Shown here: positions 15,730 through 25,854 of the stretch, in pieces
How positions within the stretch are numbered: the first letter of the stretch is position 1
How the letters are laid out: every line of letters begins with the position of its first letter
Source of the DNA: Candidatus Latescibacterota bacterium
GTDB taxonomy: Bacteria > Latescibacterota > UBA2968 > UBA8231
Reading direction: 5' to 3'
Length of the DNA stretch: 64,000 nucleotides
Assembly (NCBI GenBank): GCA_965200315.1
Contig: OZ241362.1
Location: 2,144,001-2,208,000, forward strand
The notes under the pieces: model-generated
The model's database searches: none
Told to the model about the DNA's origin: nothing
Seen by the model: only the letters and a program-made list of their open reading frames with translations
Made by a program: the position numbers and the translations under genes

Positions 15730-17199
15730 TCACTGATTCGAGGAATGCGGATAGACCCGCTCCCACCCCGCCGCACCGAACACCTTATCGGCCCACAGAG
15801 GGCCACTTGCAGAGGCGTCCACCAAATTGTAGTCGTGCGAGGATTGCACGGAGCGCATGACCTCGCGCCAAAGTGCAGCGTCTAAGTGCCGGTATTCGGC
15901 CGCGTGCGACGCGGATTCGGCGAGATTGTGCTGTTCTTGAGGATCTTCCTGCAAATCGAAAAGCCCGGTCGCGCCGTTGCCGTACTTCACTAGCTTGTGC
16001 CGCCCGTCGTAGGCCATCCAGCCAGATTGCAAGCCGCCGATGAGCATGTCGCGCGGTGTATCGCCGGCCAAGCCCAAGCCGGGCAAGGGCCTAGCGTCCA
16101 TGTACTCCGGTACACCGTGCCCAGATGCGGCTAACAGGGTAGCGGTGACGTCCGTGAGACAAACGAGATCGTCGCGCACCGCGCCGACGGCACCGCCCGG
16201 CTGGCGCACTAGCATGGGCACGTGGCAGCTACCCTCGTAGAAGTTGCCCTTGGCGTTTACGCCGTGATCTCCGACCAAGTCGCCGTGGTCGGAGGCGAAG
16301 ATGACGATGGTGTTGTCGAGACGGCCGCTTTCCTCCAAGGCCGCGAGGATTTGGCCGACCTCGTGGTCTATCTGCAAGATGAGCGCGGAGTAGTGGGCGC
16401 GCACCTTGCGCTTCTGCTCCTCGGTGTAGGGACCTTCGGCCTCTGGAGTCCATATCGGCACGCCCGGCCGAGGCCGAGGATGGATGCCCTCGCGGACATC
16501 CCGGTGAATGGGATCGCCGGGGGCAGGATCGGGAATGTTATCGACATCTACTTTAGCCAGAAATTCAGGCGTGGGATCGTAGGGGTCGTGGGGGCCGGGG
16601 AAGCCGACCATGCAGGCGAAGGGCCGCTCGTCGTCGTACTCGCGGATGAAGCGCGCAGCCTCCTCGCCGACGAAGTAATCCCAGTAGCAATCCCAAGGCA
16701 AAAGCGACACGCAGGCACCGCGATTTTCGTCGTATCCTTCGTGCTCCTTGCCCATGTACTTGCGGTGGCCGCGCTGTTGCAGATAGTGCCAGTAATCATC
16801 TTGGATGTTGACCCACACCTTGTCTTCGCAGGCGATGCGATGTTGGAAGCCAAAAGAGGCTTCCCACGGGTAGAAGTGCATCTTGCCGATGGCCGAGGTG
16901 AGGTAGCCGTGGTCGGTCAACATCTCCGCCCAAGTGCGGATGCCACACGCAGCGTGGTCCGGTCGCAGGTGGTTGCCGTTGGTCAGCACGTGATTGCGCC
17001 AAGCATTGAGGCCAGTCAGCAGCGAACAACGCGCCGGTACGCAGACCGGATGCAGGCTGTAGGCGCGGTCGTAGCGGATTCCCTCGGCGGCAATGCGGTC
17101 GATGTGGGGCGTGGAAATGTGGGGAGCACCGTAACAACTGAGAAAGTCGTGGCGCATCTGGTCGGGCATGATGAACAACAAATTGGGTCGGTCGCTCAT
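15730..17199 (-). CDS. Sulfatase (formylglycine-dependent, choline-sulfatase-like)
   Basis: RPNLLFIMPDQ, CVPAR (CxPxR), GKMH, PHDP, SDHG, KGNFYEGS. Confidence 0.92.
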   Translation of the reverse strand: MSDRPNLLFIMPDQMRHDFLSCYGAPHISTPHIDRIAAEGIRYDRAYSLHPVCVPARCSLLTGLNAWRNHVLTNGNHLRPDHAACGIRTWAEMLTDHGYLTSAIGKMHFYPWEASFGFQHRIACEDKVWVNIQDDYWHYLQQRGHRKYMGKEHEGYDENRGACVSLLPWDCYWDYFVGEEAARFIREYDDERPFACMVGFPGPHDPYDPTPEFLAKVDVDNIPDPAPGDPIHRDVREGIHPRPRPGVPIWTPEAEGPYTEEQKRKVRAHYSALILQIDHEVGQILAALEESGRLDNTIVIFASDHGDLVGDHGVNAKGNFYEGSCHVPMLVRQPGGAVGAVRDDLVCLTDVTATLLAASGHGVPEYMDARPLPGLGLAGDTPRDMLIGGLQSGWMAYDGRHKLVKYGNGATGLFDLQEDPQEQHNLAESASHAAEYRHLDAALWREVMRSVQSSHDYNLVDASASGPLWADKVFGAAGWERVYPHSSNQ

Positions 17200-17315
17200 G
17201 GTTCTATTCCATTCGTTAGGGTGTTTTCGCACTCGTCCGCGCTTTGGCCCAATCGTCGGCGCATCCTTGGTCAGCTACTAATTGCTAGGGGACGGCCTTC
17301 GTTGGTGCGCTCATA

Positions 17316-18710
17316 CTAATTCTCTTGGCTACGAGCGGCAAGGACCAGCTCCTTGAACTGATCTCCGCGTGCAGCGTAACTGGGAAACTGATCGAAGCTA
17401 GCGCAGGCCGGCGAAAGCAGCACCACGTCGCCAGTCTGCGCTAGGCGACGAGCAGCGTCTAGGGCTTCAGGTAGGCCGGGGCAGCGGTGGATAATCCCAC
17501 CAGCACCCGCCTGCCGTACAGCAGCGGCAATGCGCCGGGCCTCTTGACCGATGAGCAGCACGGCGCGGACATTGGCCGCGGCAATAGCAGTGCCCAAGGC
17601 ACTGAAATCGGCCCCTTTTGAAGCGCCGCCAGCGATCAGCAGCAGGGGCGCGTCAAAGGCCCGGATGGCAGCACAGCTAGCATCGACGGTCGTGGCCAGT
17701 GAGTCGTTGTAATAAGTAACGCCGTCGCACTCGGCAACGTATTCGAGGCGGTGGGGAAGGCCCGCAAAGGAGCGAATGGCCGCGGCAAAATGGGTCGGCG
17801 GCGCACCAAAGGCCAAAGCACCAGCTACGGCAGCGGCGACATTGCTCCAATTGTGTTGTCCCCGCAGAGGAATGTCGTCCACCGGACAAATAGCGGTCGG
17901 TTGCGCCCCTGGGCAGCAGGCCCACAACTGGCCAGCGGCAATCCACGCACCCGGAGCACTCGGGGTGGTTGTGCTAAAGGCCCACAGGGTAGCTAAACTC
18001 TCATCGGCAAAGGTTCGAGCCGTGGGACAGTCCCGATTGACGACGAGGATATCGCCGGGCGTTTGGTAGCGACAGATGGGTTTTTTAGCAGCGACGTACT
18101 CGGCGCGGTCAGCGTGATAGTCGAGGTGGTCCTCGGTGACGGAAAGAACCACGGCGATGTGCGGGCTTTGGTCGAGGTCTTGCAATTGGAAGCTGGACAG
18201 CTCTAGAACGACTCGGTCGGTCGGCTGCAACTCGTCAAGGAATTCGAGCGGCGGCCGGCCGATGTTGCCGCCGCTAAACACCCGTACCGACGGATCGGTT
18301 GCCAGCAAGGCATGCAGCAGCGCGGTCGTAGTGCCCTTGCCCTTGGTGCCGGTAATGCCGAGCACGGGCGCGGGGCATAGCTGTAAAAAGAGGCGCGTCT
18401 GGCTCGATACTTCGACGCCGCAACGGCGCGCCGCGCACAGGCGCGGGTCCAGCATCGGCAAGCCCGGCGTGCGGAACAGCAAGTCGAAGTCGGTCAGGTC
18501 ATCGAGGTAGCGGTCGCCGATGCGCCACCGTCGTACGCCCTCCACCGGCGTGGCCGGGGCACGGACATCGCACACGGCAAAGGGAATCTGGCGCACGTGG
18601 AGAAAGCGAGCCAGCGCGCGGTTTTCTATGCCGAGGCCAAGGAGGGCAATGCGCCGCTGGTGCAGAGCCGCGCTTGACTCTTTGGGGCCGGAGGATTTTT
18701 TTAGCGCCAT
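17316..18710 (-). CDS. murD: UDP-N-acetylmuramoyl-L-alanine--D-glutamate ligase
   Basis: GITGTKGKGTT, GGNIG, LELSSFQL, DHLDYH, HRLE, NDSLAT, LLSPACASFDQF. Confidence 0.95.
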   Translation of the reverse strand: MALKKSSGPKESSAALHQRRIALLGLGIENRALARFLHVRQIPFAVCDVRAPATPVEGVRRWRIGDRYLDDLTDFDLLFRTPGLPMLDPRLCAARRCGVEVSSQTRLFLQLCPAPVLGITGTKGKGTTTALLHALLATDPSVRVFSGGNIGRPPLEFLDELQPTDRVVLELSSFQLQDLDQSPHIAVVLSVTEDHLDYHADRAEYVAAKKPICRYQTPGDILVVNRDCPTARTFADESLATLWAFSTTTPSAPGAWIAAGQLWACCPGAQPTAICPVDDIPLRGQHNWSNVAAAVAGALAFGAPPTHFAAAIRSFAGLPHRLEYVAECDGVTYYNDSLATTVDASCAAIRAFDAPLLLIAGGASKGADFSALGTAIAAANVRAVLLIGQEARRIAAAVRQAGAGGIIHRCPGLPEALDAARRLAQTGDVVLLSPACASFDQFPSYAARGDQFKELVLAARSQEN

Positions 18711-18758: not shown

Positions 18759-19136
18759 GTGGCTGTAACAATTATGCGTACGGTGCGGCCTAGTCCGCAA
18801 TGGCAAGACAGCTTGATCCGGCTAGAGAGCGGCCAGCGGGTCGTTATCGACGCCGAGGAAACTTGGTCGCCGGACATGCGCAACCAAATCGCCTGGTGCG
18901 GCGCCGATGGCTTGTACAACTTGCCGGCAGAATCGGGCTACCTACTGCCTGGAGCCAATGTCGGTACCCTCGTGGCGCGCATTGGCGACAGCGGGCCAAT
19001 CTTTGCCGTGGGCAGCCGCTGCGACTTTATCGCCGATCGCGCAGGCATCCTGTATTTGGCCATGAACGAAAACCCGGATTTCAACAACCAAGCCGGCAAA
19101 ATCGTCGCTCAAATCATCGTCTTCAGCCAACCATGA
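18759..19136 (+). CDS. Small beta-sandwich protein, LecA/PA-IL lectin-like
   Basis: WQDSLIRLESGQ, GTLVARIG..GPIFAVG, GILYLAMNE..FNNQAG resemble PA-IL-type domains; no signal peptide. Confidence 0.5.
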   Translation: MAVTIMRTVRPSPQWQDSLIRLESGQRVVIDAEETWSPDMRNQIAWCGADGLYNLPAESGYLLPGANVGTLVARIGDSGPIFAVGSRCDFIADRAGILYLAMNENPDFNNQAGKIVAQIIVFSQP

Positions 19137-20170
19137 GCCTCGCCGACAGTGCGGCGACCGCAGCCTATGCGCGCGCAGGTCATCCGCCCATCCGCGCGTT
19201 CGCTCCACTCGCCGAAGGGGTCTGGCGCATCGAAGACGCAGACGGCCGCAAGGTCGTGGTCAAACATCAACTCTTCGGGAGACTGACGCAGGGCACGGCT
19301 TACGACCTGTTGGAGGTCGAGCGCGACGTGCTCGGCTTCTTGCACACAGCGGGTTGTCCGGTGCCGGCCGTGCTGGGTATCGATAAGGAGGCCCACTGCA
19401 TCTTCTTGCAATGGGTCGGCGATCGCACCCTCGACGACGCCATTCAGGACGGGGACCGTGCGACGACGATTCAGGCCATACGCGGGCTGTGCGCCATTGA
19501 GAGAGCGTGCGCCCAACGCGCCGACCAGCTAAAGCCGAGGGTAGTGCCAAGCGCCAACCGCACAGCCCTCAACGTCGCCTGGGACGAGGCCGGAGCGCGA
19601 GCGCATACTGGCATCGAGCAGCTAGGCAGCCGTCTCCAGCGGCCGCTGGACGCTGGGGTCCAGCCGCTGCTCAAAGCCATGCACGATTGGCTGGCAGCAC
19701 GGCCAGCTTCGCTGGGCAGCGTAGATTACAACGCGTACAACGCAGTGGTCGAGCCGGGGGGAACGCACGTTTATTTTCTCGAATTTGCCAAAATTGGCTG
19801 GGACTGGACGGAACGGCGCTTGACTCAGTATACTTCTAGTATGGGTAGCGGGCGACAGGATGGGCGCATGCGCTCGCTGCTGGACGCATCCGCAGCGCGT
19901 TTATACGCCGAGGCGTCCGGGCGCAGCGACGGCGCGCGGGCGCTCGATTATCACCGCATCTTTTTTCTTTTAAACAGCGCAGCCCTGTTGTGCGCGGCCC
20001 TCGACGGCGAGCCGCACGCGCTGGCCCTGCGCCAACGCTGGAAAAGGCCCTATGCGAGGCTTAGGCAATGCGCGGCCATGCTGGCCGAGGGCCTGAGCAC
20101 AGACCCAAGCGCGGCCGAGTTCAGAAGCCGGTTGCAATTTTGTATATCACCACGCGGAGGTACCCTATGA
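19133..20170 (+). CDS. Aminoglycoside/choline phosphotransferase-like protein
   Basis: VVVK, ERDVLGFL..GCPVPAVL, DYNAYNAV, FLEF kinase-fold-like motifs (atypical). ATG overlaps the upstream stop. Confidence 0.55.
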   Translation: MSLADSAATAAYARAGHPPIRAFAPLAEGVWRIEDADGRKVVVKHQLFGRLTQGTAYDLLEVERDVLGFLHTAGCPVPAVLGIDKEAHCIFLQWVGDRTLDDAIQDGDRATTIQAIRGLCAIERACAQRADQLKPRVVPSANRTALNVAWDEAGARAHTGIEQLGSRLQRPLDAGVQPLLKAMHDWLAARPASLGSVDYNAYNAVVEPGGTHVYFLEFAKIGWDWTERRLTQYTSSMGSGRQDGRMRSLLDASAARLYAEASGRSDGARALDYHRIFFLLNSAALLCAALDGEPHALALRQRWKRPYARLRQCAAMLAEGLSTDPSAAEFRSRLQFCISPRGGTL

Positions 20171-20433
20171 GCGAGTGGAATACTCTCGATTTTAAGCCCC
20201 GGGCCCGAGGAATGATCATCGGCGATATTCCCTGGCTGGCGCGGATAGCCGACAAGGCGCGGGCGCGCCAACAGCACCGCATCGGCGACTACGTATTTCC
20301 CTGACCGGCCGACAAGCGCTTCCTGGAGGAAGTGGAGCTAACAGCCGAAGCATTCGAGGAGATGGTGGCCTCGTCCGCAGACGACGATGCCCTGATCGAA
20401 AAGATGAAAGCGCACTTGGACAGAAAGCACTAG
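20167..20433 (+). CDS. DUF5069-like small selenoprotein, in-frame TGA at 20302-20304
   Basis: MSEWN...WLARIADKARA...IGDYVFP-TGA-PADKRFLEEVELTAEAFEEMV...DDALIEKMKAHLDRKH*. RBS GGAGG; starts on the upstream stop (ATGA) and ends 1 nt before the next ATG. Confidence 0.8.
20317..20334 (+). promoter_or_regulatory. SECIS-like hairpin
   Basis: CGCTTCC-TGGA-GGAAGTG; apical loop 19 nt after the UGA, with G at loop position 2. Confidence 0.6.
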
Positions 20434-20434
20434 C

Positions 20435-21322
20435 ATGAGCACTTCAGCGCAAACCGTGCGCGCGCCAAGGCGGAGAGTCCGGGAGATGGAGGTGGAGGTC
20501 GTCCACGTGCGCCGCGACACCCCAGACACCACCACGCTCTTTATGTCGACTGGCGACGAGCCAATCGAATACCAAGCCGGCCACTTCTGCACCATTGATC
20601 CGCATCAGTTCGGTGAGCTAGAGCACTTCACCGCCTATTTAGAAGATCAAAAGGGGCAGCGGGAAAAGCCGCGGGCTTATTCCATGGCTTCTGCACCGCA
20701 CGAAGAGCACCTCGCCATCACGATCAAAGAAGAGCGCTACGAGAGCGGCGAGACGCCGTACCCGCCGCTATTGTCGCCGCTCTTGACTTACTACATCCAA
20801 GAGGGCAGGCGGCTGGTCATCAGCGGTTTTACCGGGGCGTACACCTTTCCCGCCGATGTCTGCGAGCGCACTGATCACATTATCCACTTGTGCGCCGGCA
20901 GCGGCATCGTGCCCAACCGGAGCCTGATCAAGGAAAGCCTGCACCGCGGCGACCCGCTTAGGCACACCTTGCTGTTTAGCAACAAGACGCGCGGCGACGT
21001 CATTTACTTCGAGGAATTCGAGGCATTGCGGGCGCAGTACCCCGACAAACTCAAAGTCATCCACTGCATCACCCGCGAGGACCCAAGCGGCATCCGCGGG
21101 GCCCACGAGGGGCGCATCTCTGGGGAACTCTTGTGCCAAGTCGCGCCCGATCCCGCCAAGGTGATGGCTTATAGCTGCGGCCCGGGCATCACGCCCTACG
21201 AGCGCCGGGCGGCTCGGGCCAAGGGAGAGACTCCCGAGCCGCGCTTCGTCGAAAACATGGTCGCGCTCTTGCAGGAGCATGGGCTGGACAAAAAGCAGAT
21301 CCGGCAGGAGAGCTGGGGCTGA
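20435..21322 (+). CDS. Ferredoxin-NAD(P) reductase-like FAD/NAD-binding oxidoreductase
   Basis: YQAGHF, RAYSMAS (FAD-binding), AGSGIVP, LLFSNKT, YSCGP, C-terminal QESWG; no 2Fe-2S domain. Confidence 0.85.
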   Translation: MSTSAQTVRAPRRRVREMEVEVVHVRRDTPDTTTLFMSTGDEPIEYQAGHFCTIDPHQFGELEHFTAYLEDQKGQREKPRAYSMASAPHEEHLAITIKEERYESGETPYPPLLSPLLTYYIQEGRRLVISGFTGAYTFPADVCERTDHIIHLCAGSGIVPNRSLIKESLHRGDPLRHTLLFSNKTRGDVIYFEEFEALRAQYPDKLKVIHCITREDPSGIRGAHEGRISGELLCQVAPDPAKVMAYSCGPGITPYERRAARAKGETPEPRFVENMVALLQEHGLDKKQIRQESWG

Positions 21323-22279
21323 ATGAAGTTAATCGTGCAGATTCCCTGCTTTGACGAAGAGCAGACCCTGCCCGCTGTAATCCGCGACATCCCGCGCCAA
21401 GTGCCCGGCATCGATCAAGTCGAAATTTTGGTCATCGACGACGGCTCCAGCGACCTCACCAGCGCGGTGGCGCGCGAGTGCGGCGCGGATCACGTAATTC
21501 GCTTCTCGCGCAACCGCGGGCTGGGCCAAGCCTTTAAGGCTGGTTTTGACGCTTGCCTACAGCTAGGGGCCGACATCATCGTCAATACCGACGGCGACAA
21601 CCAGTACTACGGCGGCGATATTGACAAGTTAGTCGCGCCCATCCTCGGCGGCCGCGCCGACATGGTCATCGGCGACCGGCGGACGCAGGCCATTGCCCAC
21701 TTCTCCGCCCTCAAGCGCTGCCTACAAAGCTTGGGCAGCCGGGTGATTAGCCGCCTCGCCGGCTTGCAGGTGCCGGATGTGGCCAGCGGCTTTCGCGCCT
21801 TTAGCCGCGAGTGCGCGATCCAGCTTTCGACCTTTACCAATTTCGACCACACGGCCGAACACGTGATCGAGGCCGGATACAAAAATTTGGCCGTGACTTC
21901 TGTTGCGGTGCGCACCAATCCCAAGACGCGCGAGTCGCGCCTCTTTTCCAACATCGGCAAGTTCGTCTTCAAATCCGCGGAGATCAGCTTGCGCACCTAT
22001 GCGCGCTACGCCGCGCTCAAGATATTCGCCCTGTGCGGCATCTTGACCTTTGCCGCGGGCTTTTGCCTCGGTGTGCGCTTTCTCTACTTCTTCTTTTTTA
22101 CCGACGAAGGAATGCTACACGTGCAGTCGCTGATTCTGGCGGCGATCTTGCTGTTGGCCGGGTTTCAGATGTTTCTCACCGGCGTCATAGCCGATCTGAT
22201 CGCCACCAATAGGGACTTGCTCGAAGATGCGTTGCAGCGAGTCAAGAAGTTGGAATTGCGCGATACGGGCAAAAGATAA
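21323..22279 (+). CDS. Glycosyltransferase family 2 (DPM/ArnC-like, two C-terminal TM helices)
   Basis: IPCFDEE, VIDDGSSD, NRGLG, TDGDNQY, DVASGFRAF. Confidence 0.9.
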   Translation: MKLIVQIPCFDEEQTLPAVIRDIPRQVPGIDQVEILVIDDGSSDLTSAVARECGADHVIRFSRNRGLGQAFKAGFDACLQLGADIIVNTDGDNQYYGGDIDKLVAPILGGRADMVIGDRRTQAIAHFSALKRCLQSLGSRVISRLAGLQVPDVASGFRAFSRECAIQLSTFTNFDHTAEHVIEAGYKNLAVTSVAVRTNPKTRESRLFSNIGKFVFKSAEISLRTYARYAALKIFALCGILTFAAGFCLGVRFLYFFFFTDEGMLHVQSLILAAILLLAGFQMFLTGVIADLIATNRDLLEDALQRVKKLELRDTGKR

Positions 22280-22287
22280 TTTCCCAC

Positions 22288-23235
22288 ATGAAAAAACCTG
22301 CGGTTTACATCGACGGCCAAGAGGGGACCACCGGGCTGCGCATTCGCCAGATGCTAGCCGGGCACGAGGATGTGGAGGTGTTGCTCATTCCACCAGAGCA
22401 TCGCCGGGACCAGCACGCACGGGCCGAGTTTCTCAACCGAGCGGACTTGTGCGTACTCTGCCTGCCCGACGACGCGGCAGCCGAGGCCCTCGCCTTGCTC
22501 AAAAACCCACAGACCAAGGTCATCGATACGAGCACAGCGCGCCGAGTCCACCCCGAGTGGGTCTATGGATTGCCCGAGATTTCACCCGCGCACAAAGAGC
22601 GGATTCGCCGCGCACAGAAGGTCGCCAATTGCGGTTGTTATCCGGTCGGCTTCATCCTCGCGGTGCGGCCCCTCATTGCACAGGGGCTGCTCCTGCCCAC
22701 CGCGCCACTGGCCATCAACGCGGTGTCCGGCTATTCCGGCGGGGGACGCAAGCTGATTGCCGAATACGAGGGGGCAGGCGAGCACAAGCCTTTCTGTCTG
22801 TATGGCCTCGACGGCGCACACAAGCACTTGCCCGAGCTGTGGAAATTCAGCGGGTGCCAAAAGCAGCCGCTCTTTGTGCCGTCCGTCGATCATTCGTTCT
22901 GCGGCATGGTCGTCAGCACACCGGTCCCCACGGAATTTTTCGCCCGTCCTCGCGTCAATCGCGCAGCCGTGTACGAGGCTTGGCGCGCTTACTACGAAGA
23001 CTGTCCCTTTGTGAAGGTGGTCGCGCCCCAAGACGCTGTACTCCGCGACGACAAATTCCTCGAGCTAACGGGATTGAGCCATACCAACTTCGTCGAACTA
23101 TCGGTCTGGGGTGATCCTCGGCAGGGGTTGGTTTTGGTCGGGCGGCTCGACAATCTCGGCAAAGGAGCGTCGGGCAATGCCGTGCAATGTCTCAACTTGA
23201 TGCTCGACTGCGACGAGACCGCAGGGCTGGTCTAG
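22288..23235 (+). CDS. argC: N-acetyl-gamma-glutamyl-phosphate reductase (type 2)
   Basis: IDGQEGTTGL, YGLPE, ANCGCY, SGYSGGG, HKHLPE, LDNLGKGASGNAVQ. Confidence 0.93.
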   Translation: MKKPAVYIDGQEGTTGLRIRQMLAGHEDVEVLLIPPEHRRDQHARAEFLNRADLCVLCLPDDAAAEALALLKNPQTKVIDTSTARRVHPEWVYGLPEISPAHKERIRRAQKVANCGCYPVGFILAVRPLIAQGLLLPTAPLAINAVSGYSGGGRKLIAEYEGAGEHKPFCLYGLDGAHKHLPELWKFSGCQKQPLFVPSVDHSFCGMVVSTPVPTEFFARPRVNRAAVYEAWRAYYEDCPFVKVVAPQDAVLRDDKFLELTGLSHTNFVELSVWGDPRQGLVLVGRLDNLGKGASGNAVQCLNLMLDCDETAGLV

Positions 23236-23985
23236 ATGCTCGTCGATAGCCACTGTCATCTCGACCAATTCGCCGATGCCGACGCCGTGCTCGCAGCAGC
23301 CGCCCAAGCCGGGGTCGGGCAGATAGTCGCCGTCAGCGAAAGTGCCAGTTCCATGCGGGCGGTGCTCGCGCTCAAGCAGCGGCACCCGGATCAAGTGCTA
23401 GCCGGGCTTGGCTTGCATCCAGCATGGATCACCCAAGCCACAGACGCCGAGATCGCAGACGCGCTCGCCTATCTGGCCGCGCATCTGCCCGAGGCCGAGG
23501 TCCTCGGCGAGGTCGGCCTCGACTACAAATGGGCGACTAGCCCGGCACAGCAGGCTCAGCAACAGGACGTCCTCGCACAGCAGCTCGACCTAGCGGCACA
23601 GTGCGGCAAGCCGATCAATCTGCACTCGCGTCGCGCCCAGCGGCAGACCTTGGAGCGGGCCGTGGAATTTCGCCGCCGCACCCAGCTCAACGCCCAGCTA
23701 CACTGGTTCACCCAATCCAAAAAACTCGTGCGGATCTGCCGTGCGGAGCGGATCTACGTGTCCGTCGGTCCGTCGGTCCTGTGCGATCCGCAGACCCAAG
23801 CCGTGGCCGCGGAGATCGACCGCGAGTTGCTACTGTTGGAAACGGACGCGCCCGTGCCCATTGGCGGGGCCGCGGGCCATCCAGCGCAGGTGGCAGCAGT
23901 CGCCGCAAAACTAGCCGAACTCATCGGATTCACCGAAGAGGAGGCCGCCGCCAATTGGGCGCGCTATTTGGGCAGGCTATCGTGA
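23236..23985 (+). CDS. tatD: TatD-family hydrolase
   Basis: DSHCHL, GLHP, GEVGLDY, LHSR, LHWF, LLETDAP. Confidence 0.88.
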   Translation: MLVDSHCHLDQFADADAVLAAAAQAGVGQIVAVSESASSMRAVLALKQRHPDQVLAGLGLHPAWITQATDAEIADALAYLAAHLPEAEVLGEVGLDYKWATSPAQQAQQQDVLAQQLDLAAQCGKPINLHSRRAQRQTLERAVEFRRRTQLNAQLHWFTQSKKLVRICRAERIYVSVGPSVLCDPQTQAVAAEIDRELLLLETDAPVPIGGAAGHPAQVAAVAAKLAELIGFTEEEAAANWARYLGRLS

Positions 23986-24108
23986 AAACATCCGCAGATG
24001 GGCGCAGATAGACGCAGAAAAGTAGAACAGATCCGCAGTTTGAATCGTTCAAGTCATTCAGGGTTGCTATATCAGCGCAATTACAGCAATCGGTAAACAG
24101 GAGGAACT

Positions 24109-25854
24109 ATGCCAACGAGTATTTTTGTCCTTGCTTGCGCCCTCATCTTTTGCGAGCTAGCAGGGCCAGCGAGCGCCCAACAAGGCCTAGGCAGCTTGGA
24201 AAGTCTGATCAAGCAAGGCGAAGAAGAAGTCAAACTACCGGCCTTGTCCGCGTCCGACCTGCCGGCCCTAAATCAGGATTTGATCTCCGATAAGGCGCGC
24301 CTGCCCGGCGGCTTGAGCGCGGATAAGACGCGCATCGGTCAGGATCGCGATATAGACCCAGACGCATACATCGTCGGTCCCAACGACGTCCTGCAGCTCT
24401 ACATCTGGGGCGAATTCGACAAGCCCTACACCTTGCAGATCGATCCAGAGGGCTACGTTCTCATCCCCACCGTCGGCTCGTTCCACATTTCGGGCCTGTC
24501 GCTGACCGCGGCCAAAGAGCGCCTCTCGACCGCAGTCCAAAACAAGTATCCCGGTGTAAAAATCAGCATTTCCCTCGTGAGTATGCGCCTCTTCACTGCG
24601 TACGTCACCGGCGCGGTGCTGAACGAGGGCAGCTTCACCATCCATCCGACCACGCGAGTTGCAGATATAATCAATCGGGCCGGCGGCTTTAGGGACCGGT
24701 TACAACGGATCGCGTTGCCGGGTCAGGATGCTACTACTCAGGCCACGGGCCGGCGCTCCATTGAGCTGATCCACCGCGACGACACTACTGAGCGCGTGGA
24801 TCTCGACATGTTCCTCGCCACCGGCGACCTCGCGCACAATCCCTACGTGCGCATGGGCGACGTGGTCCACGTATCGTTTCGCAAGCATTCGGTGTCCATC
24901 TTCGGCGCGGTCAACGAAGAGGGCGAATACGAATTCCTACCCGGGGACACCCTCGGCGACCTCGTGACATTGGCCAAGGGCTTGAACCGCTCCAAACCGC
25001 TGATCAGCGCCGAACTCTGGCGCTTTCAGGAGGGAGCCGAACAGGCCGAAGTCACTGAGCTGGGCGGCGACAAAGAGACGCTGGAGGAACTGGACTACGA
25101 GAACATCCGCCACGTTGAGCTACGTCCCAACGACGCGGTCTTCATCCGCGCGCGGTCGCTGTGGCAGTCCACGCACACGGTGGTGATCTCTGGCGAGGTC
25201 AGGTTCCAAGGCCGCTACCGCATCGAACCCGGAGTCACCCGTATCAAGGACGTGGTAGCCGCGGCCGGCGGCCTAACCGACGAGGCGTCTCTCATCGGTG
25301 CCCGAGTAATCCGCACTAGGGTACGAGCCGAAAGCGACCCGCAGCTAGAGCAGCTAAAGAGACAGAGCGAGGTGGCGGGCCTCACCTATATGAACATGGA
25401 GGATCGAGCTTATCTCAAGACCAAAACCCGCGAGGAAAAGGGGCGGGTCGCGGTCGATTTCGAGCGGTTGTTTGTCGATGGCGACGCACAGCAGAACATC
25501 CTGCTCGCCAGCGGCGATGTGATCTTTTTTCCCATGCAGCGGCACACCATCAGCGTCAGTGGCCAAGTGCAACGAGCCGGGCTGATCGACTACGAGGTAG
25601 GCCGCAAAGTGCGCTACTACGTAACCAAGGCCGGCGGCTACTTGTACGACGCTGACAGACGCAATGCCCGCCTAGTCCGGGCGCGCACGGGCGTCCGCGA
25701 GAAGCTCAAAGACAACCTGATAGTCGAGGTCGGCGACGAAATATGGGTGCCCCAGAAGGAGCGCATCAACTATTGGGTATTCTTCCAAGAGACTGTGGGC
25801 ACCGCCGCTAGGGTCCTCGCCCTCGTAATCGCGGTGCAGACGGTGTCGCGGTAG
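24109..25854 (+). CDS. Polysaccharide export protein, Poly_export + multiple SLBB domains (Wza/KpsD-like)
   Basis: Signal peptide, YIVGPNDVL..IWG, IDPEG..IPTVG, repeated V.G.V..PG/AGG SLBB units. Confidence 0.85.
   Translation: MPTSIFVLACALIFCELAGPASAQQGLGSLESLIKQGEEEVKLPALSASDLPALNQDLISDKARLPGGLSADKTRIGQDRDIDPDAYIVGPNDVLQLYIWGEFDKPYTLQIDPEGYVLIPTVGSFHISGLSLTAAKERLSTAVQNKYPGVKISISLVSMRLFTAYVTGAVLNEGSFTIHPTTRVADIINRAGGFRDRLQRIALPGQDATTQATGRRSIELIHRDDTTERVDLDMFLATGDLAHNPYVRMGDVVHVSFRKHSVSIFGAVNEEGEYEFLPGDTLGDLVTLAKGLNRSKPLISAELWRFQEGAEQAEVTELGGDKETLEELDYENIRHVELRPNDAVFIRARSLWQSTHTVVISGEVRFQGRYRIEPGVTRIKDVVAAAGGLTDEASLIGARVIRTRVRAESDPQLEQLKRQSEVAGLTYMNMEDRAYLKTKTREEKGRVAVDFERLFVDGDAQQNILLASGDVIFFPMQRHTISVSGQVQRAGLIDYEVGRKVRYYVTKAGGYLYDADRRNARLVRARTGVREKLKDNLIVEVGDEIWVPQKERINYWVFFQETVGTAARVLALVIAVQTVSR

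Follow-up and report, generated by a model that had tools for sequence, protein, structure and literature searches.

A predicted DUF5069-family selenoprotein gene adjoining an FNR-type reductase gene in Candidatus Latescibacterota

In bacterial selenoprotein genes that have cysteine homologues, for example those of the families in Table 1 of PMC13188914, the UGA codon stands at the column of the cysteine and a stem-loop lies inside the coding sequence, a few codons further on. The general class of bacterial selenoproteins is further marked by the presence of SelA, SelB, SelD and tRNA-Sec in the genome and by a single selenocysteine (Sec) per protein. In the DUF5069 family (PF16798), the sole solved structure is that of an uncharacterised protein of Leptospirillum rubarum (PDB 3omd), which bears Cys in the sequence GEYTYNCPLDQ. 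FNR (ferredoxin-NADP reductase) with ferredoxin and cytochrome b5 reductase with cytochrome b5 are, in turn, pairs of a FAD/NAD(P)H reductase and an acceptor that carries metal or heme. Here we describe a locus that shares features with each of these systems. It is located in a 64,000-nucleotide stretch of the genome of a Candidatus Latescibacterota bacterium (contig OZ241362.1, positions 2,144,001 to 2,208,000), referred to below as the window, and its central element is a predicted selenoprotein gene of the DUF5069 family at window positions 20167-20433 of the plus strand.

Comparison of this region with related genomes suggests that 20167-20433 forms a single, intact gene encoding a DUF5069 selenoprotein of 88 residues, a reading to which we assign a probability of about 0.9. 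The gene would comprise 88 codons, among them one UGA for Sec at residue 46 (Sec46), followed by TAG; translation, the Pfam match, the orthologues and substitution rates all bear on this delimitation. Its ATG (20167-20169) is preceded at a distance of 6 nt by the ribosome-binding site GGAGG (20156-20160, plus strand, read directly from the sequence) and shares the letters ATGA with the TGA (20168-20170) of the upstream open reading frame (ORF). The in-frame TGA at 20302-20304, in the motif FP-U-PAD, is followed by 42 sense codons and then by TAG (20431-20433), which ends one base ahead of the ATG of the reductase gene (20435). A hairpin of the selenocysteine insertion sequence (SECIS) type occupies 20317-20334 of the same strand: its arms are CGCTTCC (20317-20323) and GGAAGTG (20328-20334) and its loop is TGGA (20324-20327; UGGA in the RNA), so that the hairpin starts 12 nt and the loop 19 nt past the TGA.

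An initial annotation, made from the sequence of the window, had proposed that a DUF5069-like selenoprotein, complete with a Sec/Cys pair and a SECIS element, is hidden at this place. Its description of the ORF, the in-frame TGA, the 42-codon extension, the TAG, the GGAGG, the start/stop overlap and the hairpin with its loop position was exact to the base, and the proposal itself is strongly supported by the Pfam match, the conserved TGA, the covarying hairpin and the Sec machinery. The checks that it had named, i.e. alignment to the DUF5069 profile, conservation of TGA and hairpin in related genomes, the Sec machinery in the genome and a possible sequence error, all turned out in its favour, as detailed below. 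An open frame of 42 codons, taken alone, is unremarkable. The finding goes beyond chance because the DUF5069 match spans the TGA and because more than 100 related genomes show the same combination of TGA, open frame and hairpin.

The read-through product matched the Pfam model of DUF5069 with 50.5 bits (cut-off 27, E 3.1e-13) over residues 11-86, thus on both sides of the TGA, and no NCBIfam model matched it at E <= 0.01. With 88 residues spanning profile positions 4-79 of 133, it represents a short form of the family. A family-wide profile search of 1.84 billion representative proteins gave 617 relatives at E <= 0.001, and the Sec column was tallied in 169 domain matches from the best 149 of these proteins. 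Cys was by far the commonest residue (114 matches), followed by Ser (31), a gap (14), Gly (4), Asn and Ala (2 each), Trp and Pro (1 each), in agreement with the motif G(E/D)YxYxCPxD that the initial annotation had quoted and that 3omd displays. Cys occupies the column in most single-domain DUF5069 members and Ser in most multi-domain ones. Eleven of the 14 gap rows come from gene calls whose end falls exactly ahead of the Sec column; they are therefore further TGA forms shortened by gene callers. The product is like 3omd in scoring above the gathering threshold of the family, in its superposing model and in the position of Sec, which coincides with the Cys of the GxYxYxCPxD motif of 3omd. It differs from 3omd in being short and in carrying Sec for Cys.

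The column was followed in two partly overlapping sets of orthologous loci: 50 loci from the own genome and its relatives (set 1), and the best 80 of 209 relatives in species-representative genomes (set 2). In the former, the codon was TGA in 47 loci and TGC in 3; in the latter, it was TGA in 67, TGC in 9 and TGT in 4. Pooling the two gave 114 Sec rows and 16 Cys rows, and every row without TGA thus had a Cys codon, TGC or TGT (16/16). At the level of the phylum, an orthologue at E <= 1e-15 was detected in 119 of 168 genomes, all of them within four families of one class; by row count, TGA occurred once in 104 of these orthologues and was absent from 15. Identity of the orthologous proteins to the window product ranged from 99% down to 43%, and homologues from metagenomes read YPCPAD at the Sec column. 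The metagenome-assembled genomes (MAGs) of the relatives are labelled mainly as Candidatus Latescibacterota and Poribacteria, with a few Gemmatimonadota, Planctomycetota, Opitutales and Handelsmanbacteria. The part 3' of the TGA is coding, since protein conservation runs to the same C-terminus in all loci and the ratio of nonsynonymous to synonymous substitution rates (dN/dS) in this part stays at about 0.1-0.8 wherever dS could be estimated. The TGA is also not an error of assembly or sequencing, because 19900-21400 is contained whole in contigs of four public runs (two studies), which differ from the window at 0-2 positions and never at the TGA.

The residue that follows Sec is Pro in 81 of the 114 Sec rows, Gly in 23, Ala in 8 and Arg or Ser in 2. 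A heme-regulatory-type motif, as suggested by the Cys-Pro dipeptide, was considered and rejected on account of this inconstancy. Public gene calls of the family (P0039, P0042, P0043, P0058 and others) disagree with one another: they may end at the TGA, begin past it or place Trp there.

The hairpin was analysed in an alignment of 48-nt stretches from the TGA onward, which included 68 of 69 distinct Sec-form sequences (one truncated locus was excluded). Standard pairing was found in 94.3% of the stem cells, compared with 29-69% in a slid control in which the partner was moved by 1-3 columns. Pair 18-31 is C-G in 40 sequences, G-C in 28 and unpaired in none, and pair 17-32 is G-U in 24, A-U in 23, U-A in 13 and G-C in 7. 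Compensatory changes occur at three stem pairs, and none of 500 shuffles reached the observed covariation score. Of the 114 Sec rows, 112 retain all six inner pairs; of the 16 Cys rows, none does. The predicted SECIS would be encoded within the codons for Phe-Leu-Glu-Glu, which hardly vary among the 114 Sec rows (TTC in 112, CTG in 114, GAG in 113 and GAA in 111), whereas the Cys forms differ at this place in both codons and residues (FLRE, FLQK, FLEQ, FLDE, FLDQ). As the Sec forms are frozen at the codon level and the Cys forms are free to vary, the constraint is on the RNA and not on the protein.

Two Cys forms, those of genomes G037 and G053 (loci L065 and L064), fall within a genus of Sec forms and keep five of the six hairpin pairs, and selB is present in both genomes. 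Such a pattern would be expected for recent replacements of Sec by Cys.

The genome itself encodes selA (562 bits), selB (345 bits), selD (371 bits) and tRNA-Sec (71.9 bits), all above curated cut-offs, and ARAGORN reported a tRNA-SeC with the anticodon TCA. Among 61 relatives, selB was detected in 58. The three genomes without it are G025 (TGA form, 75% complete), G050 (no orthologue) and G036 (Cys form, 93% complete). The selD gene of the own genome (G000:C1:2481770-2482693, L014) contains one in-frame TGA, and the selenophosphate synthetase is therefore itself a selenoprotein.

An AlphaFold2 model of the protein was built from 19 sequences, with a mean predicted local distance difference test value (pLDDT) of 77.7 and a predicted template-modelling score (pTM) of 0.68. 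It consists of four helices (residues 22-35, 47-55, 60-68 and 73-87), and its basic N-terminus is poorly predicted. The model superposes on 3omd (VIA-align Z 10.9, root-mean-square deviation 2.5 A over 82 residues; Foldseek TM 0.70). Beyond 3omd, VIA-align and Foldseek returned noise at Z <= 3.5, e.g. TetR-like helices, and no functional lead; only 3omd stands out, and the missing match to thioredoxin-like folds is no proof of a different fold. Likewise, an ESM Atlas search with a natural Cys homologue, DUF5069 clusters excluded, gave no usable match.

In the model, a small four-helix domain, Sec46 directly precedes the second helix (47-55), which it would cap at the N-terminus. Thiol enzymes usually have their reactive Cys or Sec placed in this way, at the start of a helix. 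Based on the model, we suggest that Sec46 may be a reactive nucleophile, which probably takes part in a redox or group-transfer step. On the other hand, certain features speak against too definite a functional assignment: there is no second Cys near Sec46, the predicted fold does not look thioredoxin-like, and the Ser that replaces Cys in 31 of the 169 domain matches would fit a nucleophile or a binding residue as well as a redox residue. Cys is in fact absent from all 88 residues of the read-through product, and as the product has no Cys besides the Sec46 position, a UxxC, CxxU or CxxC motif is lacking. Unlike the general class of bacterial selenoproteins, therefore, this protein has an all-helical, non-thioredoxin-like model, no partner Cys of the UxxC/CxxU type, and the motif P-U-(P/G/A)-x-D around its Sec. 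A basic cluster, in which K10, R12, R14, R26, D29 and K30 are invariant or nearly so, is a further conserved feature.

The gene downstream, at 20435-21322 of the plus strand, encodes a flavoprotein reductase of the FNR superfamily (295 aa, FAD/NAD(P)H type), as judged from Pfam, PDB relatives and motifs. NAD_binding_1 was matched with E 3.5e-13 and 50.6 bits against a cut-off of 22; no further Pfam domain was found at E <= 0.01, and the FAD_binding_6 model gave no match. Since NAD_binding_1 is the sole domain at this threshold, the reductase has no 2Fe-2S domain. Every NCBIfam match was far below its cut-off. Among PDB entries, ferredoxin-NADP reductases are its best relatives (E 3.5e-12), and 15 orthologues carry the motifs RAYS, GSGIVP and CGP without variation. 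The classification as an FNR-type enzyme without its own 2Fe-2S domain, as given in the initial annotation, thus holds. A gene for a family-2 glycosyltransferase (21323-22279, plus strand; PF00535, E 3.1e-21) begins directly 3' of the reductase stop and belongs to the same tightly packed gene string.

Upstream lies a gene of about 345 codons (19133-20170, plus strand) for a protein resembling phosphotransferases of the APH type. The name of an APH-like kinase is a lead only, because its sole basis is ESM Atlas look-alike clusters with PF01636 APH; no match to Pfam or NCBIfam was obtained for this gene. Its mechanical ORF begins at 18800, and the first approximately 110 residues are Arg-rich and of low complexity. 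As the orthologues have about 330-360 residues and start near 19133, the true start is probably located there.

The neighbourhood was counted in 102 related locus rows, in which some genomes appear twice. The kinase-like gene is directly upstream in 64 of them, beside Sec as well as Cys forms and usually with a stop/start overlap. An FNR orthologue follows directly downstream in 36, beside 32 Sec and 4 Cys forms, and within the own genus the reductase adjoins the DUF5069 gene in all 29 loci. In the same downstream place, a different NAD_binding_1 protein of 271 residues, i.e. a second FNR-like protein, is encoded in at least two Cys-form genomes. The remaining arrangements are diverse: a glycosyltransferase gene lies directly 3' of the DUF5069 gene, with no reductase in between, in 5 of the 102 loci and an ArgC-like gene in 2, and other loci have genes for a short-chain dehydrogenase/reductase (SDR), a PhyH-type dioxygenase or unrelated proteins. 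Loci of families f2-f4 have an RsmD-like methyltransferase gene upstream, and genomes labelled Poribacteria have a UPF0182 gene upstream and pheA downstream. An orthologue of the FNR-type reductase at E <= 1e-25 was present, at any position, in 34 of 61 genomes.

The assignment of 20167-20433 as a selenoprotein gene has to be set against several observations that weigh on the other side. Both Sec at residue 46 and read-through past the UGA are drawn from sequence comparison. The hairpin is short (6-7 bp with a 4-nt loop), and an Rfam search at E <= 10 over 20100-20500 gave nothing relevant, no model recognising the hairpin. Bacterial SECIS elements have a G-containing loop roughly 16-37 nt downstream of the UGA, a general rule of spacing and loop with which the present hairpin would agree. 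Finally, selB was present in five of five further Cys-form genomes as well as in five of five further Sec-form genomes; for this reason the presence of the machinery hardly separates Sec from Cys forms, with the exception of G036. It could be argued, then, that the TGA is a genuine stop, as it is in genetic code table 11, and that what precedes it is a 45-residue remnant or pseudogene, the 42 later codons being untranslated or translated apart. Public gene callers yield exactly such N-terminal halves and separate C-terminal halves, and an open frame of this length is not improbable on its own. However, a remnant would not account for a TGA that keeps its column in over 100 genomes whose proteins show 43-99% identity, with the frame open to the same end, for two halves that form one domain and match the Cys homologues and 3omd, for purifying selection 3' of the TGA, or for a covarying hairpin that is confined to TGA forms. 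We consider a genuine stop scarcely credible. Read-through without selenium, by a near-cognate tRNA for Trp, Cys or Arg or in a reassigned code, with a hairpin that merely stimulates it, is likewise very improbable. Trp does appear at the column in the public records P0039 and P0043, presumably as a product of gene calling with TGA as Trp, and read-through stimulated by a hairpin exists in other systems. Nevertheless, TGA is not reassigned here, because both neighbouring genes end in it (20168-20170 and 21320-21322), and the exclusive occurrence of Cys in the 16 non-TGA rows is the signature of Sec. The complete Sec machinery, with a tRNA-Sec of anticodon TCA, and the lack of selB in one Cys-form genome also argue against selenium-free decoding. 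Under the selenoprotein reading, which we therefore prefer, the UGA at 20302-20304 would be a Sec codon and not a terminator, the UGGA-loop hairpin of 6-7 bp would serve as SECIS, and SelB, tRNA-Sec(UCA), SelA and SelD of the genome would then insert selenocysteine.

It is less clear with which partner such a protein would work. The initial annotation had coupled it to the adjacent reductase in a two-component module, with electrons passing from the flavoprotein to Sec. Of this proposal, the adjacency stood, both throughout the own genus and at about a third of all loci, Cys forms included; the generality of the pairing did not, as the reductase is unlinked or not found in most other Sec lineages and the kinase-like gene is the commoner neighbour. 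The recurrence of two distinct FNR-type genes beside Sec and Cys forms would be the best argument for a functional link, and it is possible, at less than even odds, that the flavoprotein supplies NAD(P)H-derived electrons to the selenoprotein or to a component bound by it. Against this link stand the genomes G032 and G059, in which the FNR orthologue is unlinked, and G031, in which it lies on another contig. Moreover, among the 24 genomes of families f2-f4, most of them Sec-form, 23 gave no FNR orthologue at E <= 1e-25, and G005 has an intact Sec gene next to an FNR orthologue in two pieces (approximately C1:209542-210425, L045). This G005 reductase, with its internal TGA, may be a frameshifted pseudogene. 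The classical acceptors of FNR-family enzymes are also metal or flavin centres rather than thiols or selenols. A complex prediction with the FNR orthologue, a natural Cys-form DUF5069 protein and FAD scored 0.00, which is neither for nor against binding. The selenoprotein might instead act with the upstream APH-like kinase, for example as a binder or carrier of its substrate or product via Sec or Cys, and the oxidoreductases would then be lineage-specific additions. In favour of this, the kinase homologue is found upstream in 64 loci, versus 36 with the reductase downstream, next to both Sec and Cys forms and mostly with overlapping stop and start; five loci consist of kinase, Sec gene and glycosyltransferase without any reductase; the downstream genes vary widely (FNR, second FNR-like, SDR, PhyH, ArgC-like); and the conserved basic residues K10, R12, R14, R26 and K30 could bind an anionic ligand. 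On the other hand, the identity of the kinase is an ESM Atlas lead, and the loci of families f2-f4 and those labelled Poribacteria, with their RsmD-like or UPF0182 genes upstream, have neither a kinase nor a reductase adjoining. We regard a partnership with the kinase as somewhat unlikely.

Judging from gene order, the own lineage would possess a translationally coupled string of APH-like kinase, selenoprotein, FNR-type flavoprotein and glycosyltransferase. The locus is like FNR with ferredoxin and cytochrome b5 reductase with cytochrome b5 in that a gene for a stand-alone FAD/NAD(P)H reductase adjoins that of a small protein; unlike them, its predicted acceptor is not known to be a metal or heme protein, and the pairing, seen in gene order, is confined to part of one family. 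Many lineages retain the Sec protein in the absence of the reductase, which is therefore no obligatory partner. Because the reductase ATG lies one base past the selenoprotein stop, we speculate that Sec insertion may be needed for the reductase to be translated. More broadly, the short DUF5069 forms might represent a class of non-thioredoxin, all-helical selenoproteins, in which the single helix-capping selenol either is serviced directly by an FNR-type flavoprotein or binds, as a ligand, a redox cofactor that this enzyme reduces. Although we think this extended proposal unlikely as a whole, it would, if true, amount to a two-component flavoprotein-to-selenoprotein redox module of a hitherto undescribed kind, with reductase translation tied to selenium supply through Sec insertion. 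Even the simpler link to the reductase, if true, would make an unusual flavoprotein-selenoprotein redox pair. A LysW-like carrier scheme, with the kinase and an ArgC-like reductase, was also considered and dropped, as it had no support in the sequences.

With respect to the public runs mentioned above, three runs of one study that are registered as metatranscriptomic contain 19900-21400 in contigs of 2.1-3.2 kb, and the stretch also occurs in an 18.7-kb contig of a run from another study, for which no library type is recorded. A DNA run with this stretch is labelled sponge metagenome. The contigs from RNA libraries are a weak hint of operon transcription and no proof of it, since such libraries may contain DNA and one study supplied all of these contigs.

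The inventory of prokaryotic selenoproteins of May 2026 comprises 119 families and subfamilies (PMC13188914), and neither DUF5069 nor PF16798 is in its Table 1. The two terms were absent from the three supplementary files of the deep-Sep paper (PMC12013277) and from one supplementary file of the BSepDB paper (PMC13326102), the latter file being without any 'DUF', so that its family table may lie elsewhere. In the searched literature, no paper was retrieved with either term, although listing under another name is possible, and literature searches on 3OMD, on selenoproteins of groundwater MAGs and on selenocysteine in Latescibacteria or Poribacteria gave nothing on the DUF5069 family. This fits the statement of the initial annotation that DUF5069 is not an established selenoprotein family, for which, as noted, NCBIfam gave no model either. 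DUF5069 is very probably a further bacterial selenoprotein family, with an uncharacterised and apparently non-thioredoxin fold and absent from Table 1 of the latest inventory.

Since Sec marks a catalytic residue, its position is likely to single out the reactive residue of the whole DUF5069 family, with its 617 representative clusters and the 3omd structure. The contrast between Sec forms, with their frozen FLEE codons, and Cys forms could serve as a textbook-quality natural experiment on the constraint imposed by SECIS. There is also a practical consequence: in the public protein records examined here the gene is mis-called, being cut to a 45-residue stub, split in two or given Trp at the position of Sec, and the annotation of genomes labelled Latescibacterota and Poribacteria would need correcting.

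Longer members of the family are encoded by the own genome as well. They include a 469-aa protein of three DUF5069 repeats (G000:C1:4133669-4135078, L025) and a 177-aa DUF5069 protein (105746-106279, L029), both without Cys at the Sec column. Repeat proteins of 430-480 aa similar to the former are present in many relatives. As for the flanks of the gene string in the window, a sulfatase gene and a gene for a MurD-like Mur ligase are located upstream on the minus strand (15730-18710), and genes for an ArgC-like semialdehyde dehydrogenase, a TatD-family protein and a Wza-like polysaccharide exporter follow downstream (22288-25854).

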